From a virus (Duplodnaviria > Heunggongvirae > Uroviricota > Caudoviricetes), in IMG/VR virus record IMGVR_UViG_2531839666_000033, positions 1 through 29,739 of that record: a stretch of DNA of 29,739 nucleotides. One strand, written 5' to 3'. Shown piece after piece: positions 19,422-26,517 of this stretch. The position numbers and the translations under genes are program-made. How positions within the stretch are numbered: the stretch's first letter is position 1; the number at the start of each line of letters is the position of its first letter. Below the pieces are notes generated by a model. It searched no databases, was not told the origin of the DNA, and saw nothing but the letters and a program-made list of their open reading frames with translations.

Positions 19422-20166
19422 ATGACACAGACTGAATCAGCGATTCTGGCGCATGCCCGGCGGTGTGCGCCAGCGGAGTCGTGCGGCTTCGTGATAAGCA
19501 CCCCGGAGGGCGAACGGTACCAGCCCTGCGTGAATATCTCCGCAGAGCCGGAGGCGTATTTTCGTATTGCACCGGAAGACTGGCTGCAGGCAGAGATGCA
19601 GGGGGAGATTGTGGCGCTGGTCCACAGTCATCCCGGTGGTCTGCCCTGGCTGAGCGAGGCGGACCGGCGGCTGCAGATAAAGAGTGCCCTGCCCTGGTGG
19701 CTGGTCTGCCGGGGTGAAATTCACCGGTTCCGCTGTGTGCCGCACCTGACCGGACGGCGCTTTGAACAGGGTGTGACGGACTGTTACACCCTGTTCCGGG
19801 ATGCATACCATCTGGCGGGGATAACGCTGCCGGATTTTGAGCGTGAGGATGACTGGTGGCGCAACGGTCAGAACCTGTACCTGGACAACCTGGCAGTACA
19901 ACGGCTTTTACCGGGTGTCTCCGTCCTGTGCACAGGCGGGCGATATCCTGCTGTGCTGCTTTGGTTCATCGGTGCCGAATCATGCCGCCATTTACTGTGG
20001 CAACGGTGAACTGCTTCACCATATACCTGAACAACTGAGTAAACGGGAGAGGTATTCTGAAAAATGGCAACGACGAACGCATTCTGTCTGGCGTCACCGC
20101 CACTGGTCCGCATCTGCCTTCACGGGGATTTACAACGATTTGGTCGCCGCATCAGCCTGTATGTGA
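19422..20166 (+). pseudogene. K: tail tip assembly protein (lambda gpK-like), frame disrupted by an apparent 1-nt insertion in a T-run (T4 at 19906-19909)
   Basis: N-terminus MTQTESAILAHARRCAPAESCGFV…HSHPGG matches lambda K up to about 19900; the conserved C-terminus (…GDILLCCFGSSVPNHAAIYCGNGELLHHIPEQLSKRERYSEKWQRRTHS…) continues in the +1 frame (ORF 19837..20166). Confidence 0.85.
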
Positions 20167-20744
20167 ACACGGCAGCGGAGGCCATCCGTGCCCTGTCGCT
20201 GCAGGTGCCGGGATTCCGCGGTCAGATGAACGAAGGCTGGTATCAGATACGTATTGCCGGTGAGGATACCGCACCGGAGGCGGTGTACGCCCGTCTTCAC
20301 GAACAACTGGGTGAGGGAGCGGTCATCCACATTGTGCCGCGACTGGCCGGAGCCGGGGGAAATGGTGTTTTTCAGGTGGTGCTGGGGGCAGCAGCCATCG
20401 TGGGCTCTTTCTTCACCGCCGGTGCAACGATGGCGTTGTGGGGCGCAGCCCTGAGTGCCGGAGGGCTGACTGCCACCACGATGCTGTTCTCACTGGGTGC
20501 CAGCATGATACTGGGTGGTGTGGCCCAGATGCTGGCCCCGAAGGCAAAGACGCCGGAGTACAAAAGTACGGATAACGGTAAACAGAACACGTATTTTTCG
20601 TCACTGGACAACATGATTGCCCAGGGTAACCCGATGCCGGTGCCTTACGGTGAAATGCTGGTTGGTTCACGACGGATATCCCAGGACATCAGCACCCGTG
20701 ATGAGGGCGGAGACGGGAAAGTGGTGGTTATCGGACGGGGATGA
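20064..20744 (+). CDS. I: tail tip assembly protein (lambda gpI-like)
   Basis: 226 aa; RICL.GDLQRFGRRI…GAVIHIVPR.AGA…GVFQ.VLGAAAI.GSFFTAGAT…LAPKA.TP…TDNGKQNTYFSSLDNM.AQGN matches lambda I. Confidence 0.92.
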   Translation: MATTNAFCLASPPLVRICLHGDLQRFGRRISLYVNTAAEAIRALSLQVPGFRGQMNEGWYQIRIAGEDTAPEAVYARLHEQLGEGAVIHIVPRLAGAGGNGVFQVVLGAAAIVGSFFTAGATMALWGAALSAGGLTATTMLFSLGASMILGGVAQMLAPKAKTPEYKSTDNGKQNTYFSSLDNMIAQGNPMPVPYGEMLVGSRRISQDISTRDEGGDGKVVVIGRG

Positions 20745-20781
20745 AAATAAAAAAATCCCGCAGAGTTAGCGGAGCTGCGGG
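20745..20781 (-). terminator. Rho-independent terminator oriented for the minus strand (hairpin plus U7AU4 on the minus strand), directly after the I stop
   Basis: Plus-strand sequence aaaataaaaaaat-CCCGCAG-agttagcggag-CTGCGGG; on the minus strand the 7-bp GC stem is followed by TTTTTTTATTTT; no U-tract on the plus strand. Confidence 0.5.
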
Positions 20782-20817
20782 AAGAGATACGAAGATTAAC
20801 TGTAAGGAGTTATTATT

Positions 20818-20886
20818 ATGTCACAGCAAAAAAAAACGGTAACGCAGAGAAATTATAAGCGCCACTGGGATTTTGTGAAAATGTGA
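20818..20886 (+). CDS. putative 22-codon basic peptide ORF with strong RBS inside the I-J insert (may not be translated)
   Basis: AAGGAG at 20804-20809, 8-nt spacer, then ATG; MSQQKKTVTQRNYKRHWDFVKM. Its RBS and start are fully antisense to a predicted minus-strand transcript. Confidence 0.25.
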   Translation: MSQQKKTVTQRNYKRHWDFVKM

Positions 20887-21169: not shown

Positions 21170-24100
21170 GTGGGTAAAGGGGGCGACAAGGGGCACACAC
21201 CGCGTGAGGCGAAGGACAATCTCAAATCCACGCAGATGATGAGCGTGATTGATGCCATTGGTGAGGGACCGGTGGAAGGTCCGGTGAAGGGACTGCAGAG
21301 TATTCTGGTGAACAAAACCCCGCTGACGGACACGGACGGTAATCCCGTGATACACGGTGTGACCGCCGTCTGGCGTGCCGGGGAGCAGGAGCAGACACCG
21401 CCGGAAGGCTTTGAGTCCTCCGGGGCGGAAACCGCACTGGGCGTGGAGGTGACGAAGGCAAAGCCGGTGACGCGCACCATCACGTCAGCGAACATTGACC
21501 GTCTGCGGGTCACCTTCGGGGTACAGTCACTGGTGGAGACCACCTCAAAGGGTGACCGTAATCCCTCTTCTGTCCGCCTGCTGATTCAGCTTGAGCGTAA
21601 CGGGCACTGGGTGACGGAGAAGGATGTCACCATTAACGGCAAGACCACCTCGCAGTATCTGACGTCGGTGATTCTGAATAATCTCCCTGAGCGCCCCTTT
21701 AACATCCGGATGGTCAGGGTGACGGCGGACAGCACCACGGACCAGCTGCAGAACAGAACGCTGTGGTCGTCATACACCGAAATCATCGATGTGAAACAGT
21801 GCTACCCGAACACGGCCATTGTGGGGCTGCAGGTGGATGCGGAGCAGTTTGGTGGCCAGCAGCTGACGGTGAACTACCATATCCGCGGTCGCATCATTCA
21901 GGTGCCGTCAAACTATGACCCGGAAAAACGCACCTACAGCGGTATCTGGGACGGGAGTCTGAAACCGGCATACAGCAATAACCCGGCCTGGTGCCTGTGG
22001 GACATGCTGACCCACCCGCGCTACGGGATGGGAAAACGCCTGGGGGCCGCGGATGTGGACAAGTGGGCACTGTATGCCATCGGGCAGTACTGCGACCAGA
22101 CGGTCCCGGATGGTTTCGGGGGCACAGAGCCGCGGATGACCTTTAATGCGTACCTGTCACAGCAGCGTAAGGTGTGGGATGTCCTGGGGGATTTCTGCTC
22201 GGCGATGCGCTGTATGCCGGTATGGAACGGCCAGACGCTGACGTTCGTTCAGGACCGCCCGTCGGATGTGGTGTGGCCGTACACCAACAGCGATGTGGTG
22301 GTGGATGATAACGGCGTGGGGTTCCGCTACAGCTTCAGTGCCCTGAAGGACCGGCACACGGCGGTGGAGGTGAATTACACCGACCCGCAGAACGGCTGGC
22401 AGACTTCCACGGAACTGGTGGAAGACCCGGACGCCATCCTGCGCTACGGGCGCAATCTGCTGAAGATGGATGCGTTTGGCTGTACCAGCCGCGGTCAGGC
22501 CCACCGTGCCGGACTGTGGGTGATAAAGACAGAACTGCTGGAAACGCAGACGGTGGATTTCACGCTCGGGTCACAGGGGCTGCGGCACACGCCCGGTGAC
22601 ATTATTGAAATCTGTGATAACGACTACGCAGGGACCCTGACCGGCGGACGCATCCTGTCCATCGATGCCGCCAGCCGTACCCTGACGCTGGACCGTGAGG
22701 TGACACTGCCGGAAGCAGGGACATCGACGGTGAACCTGATTAACGGCAGCGGTAAGCCGGTGCGCGTGGACATCACTGCACACCCCGCCCCGGACCGGAT
22801 ACAGGTCAGTACCCTGCCTGATGGTGTGGAGACATACGGGGTGTGGGGACTCTCCCTGCCGTCACTGCGCCGTCGCCTGTTCCGCTGTGTCTCCATCCGG
22901 GAAAACACGGACGGCACCTTTGCCATCACGGCAGTGCAGCACGTACCGGAAAAAGAAGCCATCGTGGATAACGGGGCCCGCTTTGAGCCGCTCTCCGGCT
23001 CACTGAACAGCGTCATCCCGCCGGCAGTGCAGCACCTCACGGTGGAGGTGAGTGCCTCAGACGGCCAGTATCTGGCGCTGGCGAAATGGGACACGCCGCG
23101 GGTGGTGAAGGGCGTGCGCTTCAGTCTGCGCCTGACCAGTGGCAGTGGTGAAAACAGCCGCCTGGTGACCACCGCCATCACTGCCGACACGGAGCACCGT
23201 TTCAGTGGCCTGCCTCTGGGGGAATACACCCTGACGGTCAGGGCGATAAACAGCTACGGCCAGCAGGGCGAACCTGCCACCACCGCGTTCCGGATTAATG
23301 CGCCTGCAGCACCGGCCAGCATTGAGCTGACGCCGGGGTATTATCAGATAACAGCAGTACCGGTGCTGGCGGTGTATGACCCGACGGTACAGTCTGAATT
23401 CTGGTTCTCAGAAAAACGCATCACGGACATGGCACAGGTGGAAACCTTTGCCCGTTATCTGGGGACAGGCAGCCAGTGGAGTGTCTCCGGCCCGCACATT
23501 AAGCCGGGGAAGGATTTCTGGTTTTATGTGCGCAGCGTCAATCTGGTGGGGAAATCTGCGTTTGTGGAAGCCAGTGGCCGGGCGAGCAATGATGCGGAAG
23601 GGTATCTGGACTTTTTCAGAGGAGAAATCGGGAAGACACATCTGGCACAGGGGATGTGGGAGCTGATTGATAACAGCCAGCTTGATGATGAGATGGCGGA
23701 GATGAAGACCACCATCACAGAAACCCGCAATGAAATCACACAGACGGTCAGTAAAACCCTGGAAGACCAGAGTGCCACCATACAGCAGATACAGCGGGTG
23801 CAGACAGACACAAATAACGACCTGGCTGCGCTGTACATGCTGAAGGTACAGAAAACGAAAACGGCATTCCGTATGTTGCCGGTATAGGTGCGGGGATTGA
23901 GGATGCTGATGGCCAGCCCCTGAGCAATATTCTGCTGCAGGCGGACCGTATCGCGATGATTAACCCGGAGAACGGCAACACCACGCCGCTGTTTGTGGCG
24001 CAGGGGAATCAGCTGTTCATGAACGATGTGTTCCTGAAGCGGTTGTTTGCAGTGAGCATCACCTCGTCCGGCAATCCCCCGACGTTCTCCCTGACGCCGG

Positions 24101-24636
24101 AGGGCAGGCTGACGGCCCGCAATGCGGACATCAGCGGACATATCAGTGCGAACTCGGGCACGCTCAATAATGTCGTGATAGCGGAGAACTGTACGATAAA
24201 TGGCACGCTGAAAGCGGAGAACATTATTGGTGATCTTGTGAAATGTGCAGGGGTGGCTTTTCCGGTGGATGGTAGTTACCTTGCGAACGGTACACGAACG
24301 CTGACGGTGTATGACGATCACAGCTTTGACCGGCAGATTATAATCCCGCCGATAATCTATGTCGGGTCAAAACAGGAATCCCGTACCAGTAATGACATCT
24401 GGACAGAGTGCTTCCTGCATGTTGATCAGAACGGACGCCGGATTTATTCCGGCAGGTCAGTGACAGAGCCGGGAATTTTCAGCGGGATCATCGATATGCC
24501 AGCCGGTCATGGTCATATCACCCTGAGTTTTACCGTAAGTTCACGACGTCAGAACGGGAGTTTTGGCAGTTCACGTATCAGTAACCTTCAGGCGATAGTG
24601 GTGAAGAAAAACAGCGCGGGGATCAGCATCCGCTGA
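21170..24636 (+). pseudogene. J: tail tip / host-specificity protein (lambda gpJ-like), frame disrupted by a 1-nt deletion in an A-run (A4 at 23858-23861)
   Basis: ORF 21170..23887 matches lambda J over about 890 aa ([20 protein letters not shown]…, [35 protein letters not shown]); the conserved C-terminus (…[25 protein letters not shown]…NADISG…) continues in ORF 23956..24636; one extra A in acgaaaaCgg joins the frames. Confidence 0.9.
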
Positions 24637-25039
24637 ACATCGCGCCCCGGGATTGCCGGAAGGAGACAAAAACCGTACAGTATGCGCGGGTGCCTTTGGC
24701 TGATGGCCGGAGGGAACACCTGAAGGCCGGAAAGACGAAGGCCCCGGACAAACATTCATGTTTAACCCGAGGCCTGACTTTCGATCTTCAGCAAATTGAA
24801 GGTTAGCGCCTCTCCGTAAAAGGAGCAAGCGTTTATGTCGCAAAACCGTTAAAAACCACCGTGATTTGTATCACGGTAGTGCTCATTATCTGGATCACCC
24901 ACAGTTCACTGTGCGAGTTCCGGTTCCGGATAGCGGGCGCGGAGATTGCGGCGTTCTTACAGTGTAAGCAGTAAGAAACCGTGGCGGGGGAGAATATCCC
25001 CCGCCGACCGGTTGCTGAGGGTGGTCAGCCGGATGGCAC

Positions 25040-25103
25040 CGTTTTAACACCAACAAACCACAAATTTTACCGCAGGCCGGGAAACCGGTACTGCGGTTTT
25101 TTT
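25040..25103 (+). ncRNA. candidate small RNA 3' module: CA-rich tract plus strong intrinsic terminator (GAAA tetraloop, U7) just upstream of stf; 5' end undefined
   Basis: ttttaacaccaacaaaccacaaatttta followed by hairpin CCGCAG(G)CCGG-GAAA-CCGG(TA)CTGCGG and TTTTTTT (25070-25103). Identity as an sRNA is inferred, not demonstrated. Confidence 0.3.
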
Positions 25104-25116
25104 ATGGGGGAAATCC

Positions 25117-26517
25117 ATGACAGTCAGAATATCGGGTGTGCTGAAGGATGGTACGGGAAAAGCGGTACCGGGATGCACGATAGAGCTGAAAGCGCGACGC
25201 ACAACGGAGACGGTGATTGTCACCACGGTGGCGTATGGTCTGCCGGGGGAAACCGGCAGTTACAGTATGGATGTTGAGCCGGGGTTGTACCGGGTGACGC
25301 TGAACACGGAAGGGTACGCGCCGTCATATGTGGGTGACATTCTGGTGAAGGCGGATTCTGCACCGGGAACGCTGAATAAATTTCTGATGGACCTGGAAGA
25401 CGCACAGTATTACCCGAAAGCCCTTGCAGAGCTGGAAGCGGTGGCCGCGGAAATCCTGAAACGTGCGGAAGCGTCAGCGGCGAGTGCAGAGGAAGCGAAG
25501 AAACGGGCAGAGAATGCGCGGGGACCGAAGGGGGATAAGGGGGACACCGGGCCGCAGGGTATTCCCGGGCCAAAAGGCGATACCGGCGAGCGTGGGCCAA
25601 AGGGTGAGCGTGGTGAGACAGGACCACAGGGGCTTCAGGGTGTGAAAGGTGAACGGGGAGAGAAGGGCGAAAAAGGCGAGCCGGGAGGGCCGGATGCGAC
25701 GACGGCACAGAAGGGAATTGTGCAGTTAAGCAGCGCAACGGACAGTGATGATGAAACGAAGGCAGCCACCCCGAAAGCGGTGAAAGCGGCAATGGACAAA
25801 GCGGACGGATGCCTGGAGAAAGCGAAAAACGGTGACGATATCCCGGATAAGGTGAAGTTTCTGAACACCGTGGGAGCAGCCAGAGTATACGGGCGGGACA
25901 TTCATACGGAGACCGGTGAATGGACCACGAGTGAGTTTGTGGCCTGGCTGAAAGAAAAGGGGGCATTTGACCAGCCTTACTGGATGATGAAGGCATCACT
26001 GCTTGCGGAATTTAATAAGGTCATCACGGATGTCGGACCGGGAAAACTCAATCTGGGAGGCTGCGCCATTGAGGTGATGGGGACGTATAACGCAGCCATA
26101 GTCCGGGTCACCATCGGCGAATACGGTGGCGATGGTTTTCTGAACGGCACGGTCTGTACCTGTACAGTTTACGGAGACACACAACGTTTTCACTGGCGGG
26201 TGGATTACAGCACAAAAAACAAGCCCACAACAGCAAGCCTGACAGTAAATGGCTGGGAGCGTGATGAAGTAACCGGTCGTTTGCGGCAATGGGGCAGTAT
26301 TGAGGTAAGTGAGGATGATGGTAAGCTTATGACACAGCACTCTATCCGTTTTCCTGTCGCTTTTCCGGTTGCTGCTCTGAATGCTCAGGTGTCTGCAGTG
26401 GGAGACCCCCACGCCATTAAGATGTATACCCTGTCGAATCCGTCATTAGTGTCTGTGACTCTGATAACAGTCAGGGGATGCTACGGCAAGTTTTCATGGG
26501 AAGCGATCGGATACTGA
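25117..26517 (+). CDS. stf: side tail fibre protein (lambda Stf-like N-terminus) with an 18-triplet collagen-like Gly-X-Y repeat and a distinct C-terminal receptor-binding domain
   Basis: N-terminus [14 protein letters not shown]…C.I.LKARR…SMDVE.G.Y and motif [29 protein letters not shown] match lambda Stf; [57 protein letters not shown] lies at about 25521-25683. Confidence 0.85.

Follow-up and report, generated by a model that had tools for sequence, protein, structure and literature searches.

A pre-stf intrinsic terminator in a lambda-like phage that probably doubles as the 3' end of a hok/sok-type moron mRNA

Directly ahead of the side tail fibre gene (stf) in the 29,739-nucleotide record of a caudoviricete virus (IMG/VR IMGVR_UViG_2531839666_000033, positions 1 to 29,739, hereafter the window), a CA-rich tract runs into a hairpin followed by seven U residues. 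This leads to the question as to what a strong termination signal is doing within a late structural operon. The initial annotation, made from the sequence alone, considered a terminator at this place unexpected unless it marked the 3' end of a separate small transcript, and it proposed an Hfq-type small RNA (sRNA), perhaps of the AgvB kind. Our analysis leads to a more ordinary answer, namely that the hairpin and U7 are, with high probability, the intrinsic terminator that precedes stf in lambdoid phages, which in this phage would also serve as the 3' end of a hok/sok moron mRNA.

The elements of the site and the gene that follows it are listed below:

25041-25069, plus strand: CA-rich tract GTTTTAACACCAACAAACCACAAATTTTA, as read from the sequence
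25069-25103, plus strand: intrinsic terminator, composed of a hairpin (25069-25097) and U7 (25097-25103)
25106-26517, plus strand: stf side tail fibre gene, with the Shine-Dalgarno sequence GGGGGA at 25106-25111 and the ATG at 25117

The description of the tract as CA-rich and unstructured was borne out, since it is unpaired both in the fold of 25041-25103 and in that of the whole 416-nt transcript presented below. It coincides largely with the longest G-free run on the plus strand of the window (25042-25071, 30 nt, in a window of 31% G). By our own estimate, as opposed to a computed value, some 0.1-0.2 G-free runs of such length would be expected by chance; the run is unusual, not extreme. 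In isolation, 25041-25103 folds to -21.6 kcal/mol (z = -4.1), and none of 200 dinucleotide shuffles, which averaged -10.7 ± 2.6 kcal/mol, was as good. The claim of a strong terminator ending 13 nt before the stf start codon is thus upheld, the gap being counted from the last T of U7 (25103) to the ATG (25117). Its stem needs some revision: the GAAA loop (25081-25084) and the interruption, a single bulged A at 25090, were correctly recognized, while the 10 bp first placed at 25070-25096 become 12 pairs at 25069-25097. The site does not appear in the output of a standard terminator scan because of the bulge in the stem. A bidirectional terminator was considered and dropped, as the minus strand, read from the sequence, lacks a U run after the hairpin.

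Hfq-dependent sRNAs are characterized by a U-rich stretch before the terminator hairpin and by a long U tail, a criterion that is said to derive from the work of Otaka and Ishikawa. Sequence elements of this type are present here, with UUUU at 25065-25068 just 5' of the hairpin and the U7 tail after it. Downstream, the product of stf is recognized by Pfam phage_tail_N (4.5e-40) and Phage_fiber_2. Upstream, the open reading frame at 23956-24636 encodes the C-terminal part of gpJ (Pfam Ig_GpJ_C) and ends at 24636. Lom, which was entertained as the upstream gene, proved wrong: the gpJ C-terminal part and then a hok/sok locus precede the site.

This locus was recognized by a scan of the whole window against Rfam, in which the only match above a gathering score was RF01794 ('sok/CssrC'). 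The model is in effect the leader of a hok mRNA; it was matched over its full length (model positions 1-157), and the alignment ends at the hok AUG. The features of the locus are as follows:

24653-24681, plus strand: predicted hok promoter, with the -35 element TTGCCG at 24653-24658, a 17-nt spacer and the -10 element TACAGT at 24676-24681
24688-25103, plus strand: predicted full-length hok-family mRNA of 416 nt, extending from tac at its 5' end to the U7 tail
24688-24837, plus strand: hok mRNA leader (RF01794, 63.2 bits against a gathering score of 59, E = 5e-12)
24689-24704, plus strand: tac element at the 5' end of the hok leader
24770-24840 (approximate), minus strand: expected Sok antisense RNA, placed by analogy with sokW
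24835-24974, plus strand: hok coding sequence (Hok/Gef family), frameshifted in the window copy
24983-25005, plus strand: GC-rich 3' UTR hairpin directly after the hok stop codon
25024-25040, plus strand: fbi (fold-back inhibition) element, pairing with tac at 24689-24704
25042-25068, plus strand: linker between fbi and the terminator, that is the CA tract, G-free, CA-rich and unpaired in all folds

A promoter scan with lenient settings gave the predicted promoter as its sole match in the region. Its predicted start point, G24688, coincides with the first base of the RF01794 alignment, so that the promoter lies 7 nt upstream of the alignment start, and it is kept in hokW of phage 933W and in all related loci. 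The Hok peptide matches Pfam PF01848 (HOK_GEF; E = 2.4e-11, 43.5 bits against a cutoff of 22). In intact relatives it comprises 46 amino acids, MSQKPLKTTVICITVVLIIWITHSSLCEFRFRIAGAEIAAFLQCKQ, and near-identical loci occur in 270 complete E. coli genomes, where PGAP annotates this 46-aa protein as 'Hok/Gef family protein'; the aligned locus of E. coli STEC434 has a PGAP Hok/Gef family protein at the same place. The stem of the 3' UTR hairpin is retained, with altered sequence, in 933W and other alleles. A consensus scan of the minus strand returned no consensus promoter for Sok, the position of which is modelled on that of sokW (71 nt complementary to the hokW 5' UTR; PMC8621323). In prophage Sp5, experiments support hokW-sokW as a type I toxin-antitoxin pair with a helping role in phage release (PMC8621323). 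By its sequence, the locus upstream of the terminator is a predicted hok/sok-type type I toxin-antitoxin system, placed between J and stf as a moron.

The stem of the leader at 24776-24803, the presumed Sok target, is hypervariable among hok loci, with both of its arms varying together, and identity between loci amounts to 97-100% in the coding region and to approximately 87% in the leader. This variability would fit diversifying antisense specificity among several hok/sok copies per genome.

Folding of the 416-nt RNA yielded a minimum free energy of -188.5 kcal/mol (z = -9.2), with pairing of the 5' and 3' ends and an intact terminator. According to the pair table of this structure, tac (24689-24704) and fbi (25024-25040) form 16 pairs with one bulge. 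The consensus fold of seven homologues has the same tac/fbi pairing (7/7), an open tract and the terminator; covariation is scant, because these homologues are close relatives. The published architecture of hok comprises a full-length mRNA closed by tac/fbi pairing, a terminator, and slow 3' maturation that opens the mRNA for translation and Sok binding, this maturation being attributed to RNase(s) with nothing more specific stated (PMC9841398). Taken together, the fold and the published architecture identify the CA tract as the linker between fbi and the terminator, the spacer between these two elements measuring 28 nt.

The window copy of hok may be a pseudogene, or its sequence may contain a homopolymer error. 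Relative to E. coli STEC434, which is 97% identical over 4 kb and was used as the reference for frameshifts, one A is lost from an A5 run at ~24841, after codon 3 of hok. A second single-A loss, from an A5 run at ~23858, splits gpJ into 21170-23887 and 23956-24636. Two homopolymer deletions within 4 kb suggest either sequencing error or a decaying prophage.

Examination of other lambdoid phages revealed that a terminator in front of stf is the norm. In phage lambda, an intrinsic terminator, AGCCCGCCGGAACCGGTGGGCTTTTTT followed by GTGGGGTGAATATG, occupies the same position between lom and stf (L056 815-836), and terminators are similarly placed between lomR and stfR of Rac (L058 712-738) and between lom and stf of prophage PP6 of E2348/69 (L059 1043-1075). 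The lom-stf hairpin is unannotated in the lambda record, and a literature search returned no relevant description of this terminator; Luk and Szybalski (1983) reportedly mapped terminators downstream of J. Homologues of the stf N-terminus were then sampled from IMG/VR (76 loci, L060-L135, 46-99% identity), giving 29 distinct upstream regions of 80 nt. A hairpin with a U run is present in all 29, as compared with 5.3% of background 80-nt windows, and in 26 of these regions the U run begins 16-24 nt ahead of the stf ATG. These hairpins comprise at least nine unrelated sequences at one position, and the gene preceding them is hok, lom or J; in three loci (L128, L129 and L132), J lies directly upstream with no moron between. 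Since a pre-stf terminator was found in every lambdoid phage sampled, lambda included, its occurrence inside the late operon is the rule, and the premise that it would be unexpected falls away. The morons that lie between J and stf (lom and hok) are therefore best read, by their arrangement, as using the pre-stf terminator as their 3' end.

The particular allele of the window was traced through two collections. The 87-nt 3' module is present in 142 of 5426 complete E. coli genomes, with a J-stf intergenic location in the six loci inspected, and the exact hairpin core occurs in 43 IMG/VR contigs, in every one directly upstream of the stf ATG. An exact-pattern scan of species-representative genomes for the terminator core returned one unrelated match in Clostridia only; hence, at that stringency, the allele would seem to be restricted to E. 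coli phages. The piece containing the hok promoter and tac is present in all 41 terminator-bearing IMG/VR loci with enough upstream sequence, and hok encodes an intact 46-aa product in approximately 30 of the 43. In three IMG/VR loci, the sequence between the short repeats CCGGATAGC and CCGGATGGC is deleted, so that the C-terminus of Hok and the 3' UTR hairpin are lost and the linker and terminator stay in place. Eight of the 43 are of a form that we term 'mini-hok', with the promoter/tac piece joined straight onto fbi and the linker and terminator retained. Likewise, the hok-deleted prophages of E. coli G1/2 and 99RCEF keep the hok promoter, a fused tac/fbi hairpin, the linker and the terminator. 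As the module persists where most or all of hok is lost, it would seem to be maintained for reasons beyond hok alone. Across alleles, the tract is the most variable part of the module, with variants including AACATCAATAAATCAC and AATCCTGTAAACCACG.

In the predicted mini-hok RNA of 93 nt, an open CA-rich linker of 32 nt connects a 5' hairpin with the terminator (z = -4.4), and this RNA gave no meaningful match to Rfam. Read by eye, the spacing of its -35 and -10 elements is disturbed by a 7-nt insertion. The mini-hok allele is a single, almost invariant sequence and is therefore uninformative on selection. Members of the decay series are L006 and L007 (E. coli M18 and NCTC9112), L008 and L009 (E. 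coli G1/2 and 99RCEF) and, in IMG/VR, L024, L027, L030, L031, L033, L034, L043 and L048, as well as L032, L041 and L044.

The suggestion that the element might be an anti-sRNA of the AgvB type was pursued with covariance models, genomic position and target pairing. AgvB (EcOnc01) is an anti-sRNA of EHEC prophages with a primary transcript of 51-60 nt, encoded as one of two convergent sRNAs at a moron site 3' of PR', with a conserved 3' region of ~42 nt (PMC4104026). The Rfam models of AgvB (RF02702) and AsxR (RF02703) gave no match in the window at gathering score, nor in 24500-25250 at E ≤ 10, and the same search mode scored the true AgvB1 of Sakai at 96.5 bits. At this control locus in Sakai prophage Sp10 (L136 128-320 on the plus strand and 321-382 on the minus strand), a convergent pair of STnc100 (145.8 bits) and AgvB (96.5 bits) is observed; no such pair was detected in the window at gathering score. 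The conserved 3' region of AgvB and the window element are unrelated in sequence, and the CACAACA consensus is absent from the tract. Models with their positive control, genomic position and sequence thus rule out an AgvB or AsxR identity. Mimicry of GcvB targets is not supported either, since the duplex of the tract with the GcvB R1 seed (-13.4 kcal/mol, longest continuous pairing 6 nt) has the same energy as those of random 29-mers and shuffles: the tract ranks at the 51st percentile of 11,884 random 29-mers from the window, and 36% of shuffles equal it. AgvB1 itself pairs with R1 at -22.5 kcal/mol through 12 contiguous Watson-Crick pairs.

Other sRNA identities fared no better. The best resemblance to IsrK, over 24984-25103, scored 14.8 bits against a gathering score of 50 (E = 1.4) and was treated as a generic likeness of a hairpin plus terminator; the Rfam comparison therefore gave no meaningful match to a known sRNA family, with the hok leader alone above its gathering score. 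In the supplements of Tree et al. 2014, no gene-context words set an EcOnc sRNA beside a tail fibre gene. As for the Hfq-sRNA architecture, the terminator and the U-rich elements stand, whereas a start of its own does not: no sigma-70-like promoter was found in the 175 nt upstream (24900-25075) under lenient criteria that recover the hok promoter. A homologue of PasB is present elsewhere in the window (~20749-20829, minus strand), between gpI (20064-20744) and gpJ (21170 onwards), with 81% identity and a conserved terminator (CCCGCAG...CTGCGGG plus U7). PasB of EPEC E2348/69 is a Northern-validated, Hfq-dependent sRNA that was discovered by RIL-seq. Its position between gpI and gpJ on the opposite strand precludes a PasB identity for the CA tract and terminator; the Hfq-type prophage sRNA candidate of the window is this homologue, not the element in front of stf.

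On the model that we favor, the promoter at 24653-24681 would produce an mRNA of ~416 nt (24688-25103), in which fbi (25024-25040) would fold back on tac (24689-24704) and hold the full-length molecule closed and untranslated, the CA-rich tract being no more than the unstructured segment that links fbi to the terminator hairpin. R1 hok and Sp5 hokW suggest by analogy that slow 3' trimming would open the mRNA and that an antisense Sok RNA would normally neutralize the opened form of a toxic message. In a lysogen, the terminator would keep transcription from the hok promoter out of stf-tfa; during lytic growth, to judge from Q antitermination in lambda, Q-modified RNA polymerase would read through it. 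The initial annotation is therefore very probably right that a transcript distinct from that of the late operon ends at the terminator, which Q-modified polymerase would pass over. It erred as regards the size of that transcript, which is most likely the ~416-nt hok toxin mRNA rather than a small RNA.

How do other explanations compare with this one? An AgvB-like RNA that mimics CA-rich GcvB targets and titrates the R1 seed is extremely improbable: the CA-rich composition, the terminator and the existence of AgvB in EHEC prophages (PMC4104026) are all that speak for it, and they are set against the silent models, the unrelated 3' region, the different locus, the missing CACAACA and the chance-level pairing described above. 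A more serious proposal, which we nevertheless consider unlikely, is that cleavage of the hok mRNA frees a fragment of ~40-65 nt, comprising the tract and the terminator, which binds Hfq and acts in trans as an sRNA or sponge, as the 93-nt mini-hok RNA might likewise do; the cut, by RNase E for example, would fall at the AAAUUUU or GUUUU stretches of the linker, a detail of the same low probability. UUUU, hairpin, U7 and a single-stranded G-free tract do form a generic Hfq module, this module outlasts hok in the truncated and mini-remnant alleles, the remnant has the shape of an open-linker sRNA, and prophage sRNAs of similar shape exist, with a PasB-like one in the same window. However, the putative fragment has neither a promoter of its own (24900-25075) nor an Rfam match, the tract varies more than any other part of the module, and the promoter spacing of the mini-remnant is broken by the 7-nt insertion. 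Furthermore, maturation of the R1 hok mRNA is exonucleolytic and leaves no 3' fragment, while the pre-stf terminator, which is kept even in the absence of hok or lom, already explains why the module is retained. The part of the EPEC RIL-seq tables consulted lists no chimeras for the lom-stf region of PP6, a weak negative, since the PP6 tract is non-homologous and this applies to that part of the tables. The stronger form of the proposal, in which linker and terminator constitute a 3' module that binds Hfq and persists after the toxin gene is gone, with the mini-hok RNA or a processed fragment acting in trans, has in our opinion a slimmer chance still; if true, such an RNA would be an sRNA born from a decaying type I toxin mRNA.

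It is also possible, if rather doubtful, that the hairpin and U tract chiefly serve stf and that their use by hok is incidental, a reading compatible with a hok/sok mRNA ending at the pre-stf terminator. Under it, and with the same degree of doubt, partial late termination might set the levels of stf-tfa, the 3' end of the J-proximal mRNA might be protected, or a U-rich standby or S1 site might be provided beside the Shine-Dalgarno sequence. The constant spacing from U run to ATG (16-24 nt in all but three of the 29 distinct upstream regions), the presence of a hairpin even where J directly precedes it (L128, L129 and L132) and the turnover of hairpin sequence at a kept position all point in this direction. 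Yet tight spacing is common in compact phage genomes, and it is an established pattern, in line with the moron concept, for morons expressed in the lysogen to be followed by intrinsic terminators.

A false lead is thereby removed, the element being neither AgvB nor a stand-alone sRNA gene, and the terminator can be assigned to a putative hok/sok moron of the kind shown in prophage Sp5 to aid phage release. As a discovery, the element itself carries little weight, as it is an ordinary feature of lambda-like phages. The constancy of a terminator before stf, whatever gene precedes it, is useful for annotation and for considering how J-stf morons are insulated. In addition, the hok decay series of related prophages, which keeps the promoter, the end-pairing hairpin and the terminator, offers material for a cheap test of sRNA activity.

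Comparison with known systems places the element among several partial likenesses. AgvB and AsxR (RF02702 and RF02703) are also prophage-encoded, with an intrinsic terminator after a CA-rich 5' part, but they differ in genomic position, in their conserved 3' region and in the origin of the transcript. PasB provides a parallel in that a lambdoid prophage encodes this Hfq-dependent sRNA within its tail-gene operon. The closest counterparts of the upstream locus are hok/sok of plasmid R1 and hokW-sokW of the Stx2 prophage Sp5/933W, with which it shares the Hok/Gef peptide, the RF01794-type leader, tac/fbi end pairing, the GC-rich 3' UTR hairpin and an intrinsic terminator after fbi. The spacer between fbi and the terminator is shorter in R1 hok, at ~7 nt, than the 28 nt of the window. 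Like the window locus, hokW-sokW resides in the tail-gene region of a lambdoid prophage; in 933W, however, hok follows lom, whereas the window, from a long-tailed lambda-like phage, has it between J and stf. HokW has 51 amino acids as against 46 for the window-type reading frame, which is frameshifted in the window copy. From promoter to fbi, the 933W locus is 76% identical to that of the window, and the homology stops 4 nt past fbi, at 25044, after which the window continues with the 28-nt G-free linker and the stf-associated terminator. Hence, tract and terminator appear to belong historically to the stf side and not to the hok cassette.

Finally, lom-stf of lambda and lomR-stfR of Rac reproduce the geometry of the window, with a hairpin, U6-7, ~10 nt containing a Shine-Dalgarno sequence, and the stf ATG. 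The hairpin sequence differs, the upstream moron is lom (lomR) instead of hok, and the lambda tract before the terminator, unlike that of the window, is not G-poor. Nevertheless, in both lambda and Rac the terminator likewise follows a lysogen-expressed moron, and homology to the window is recognizable from the U run into stf (TTTTTT.TGGGG..AA..ATG.CAGT).
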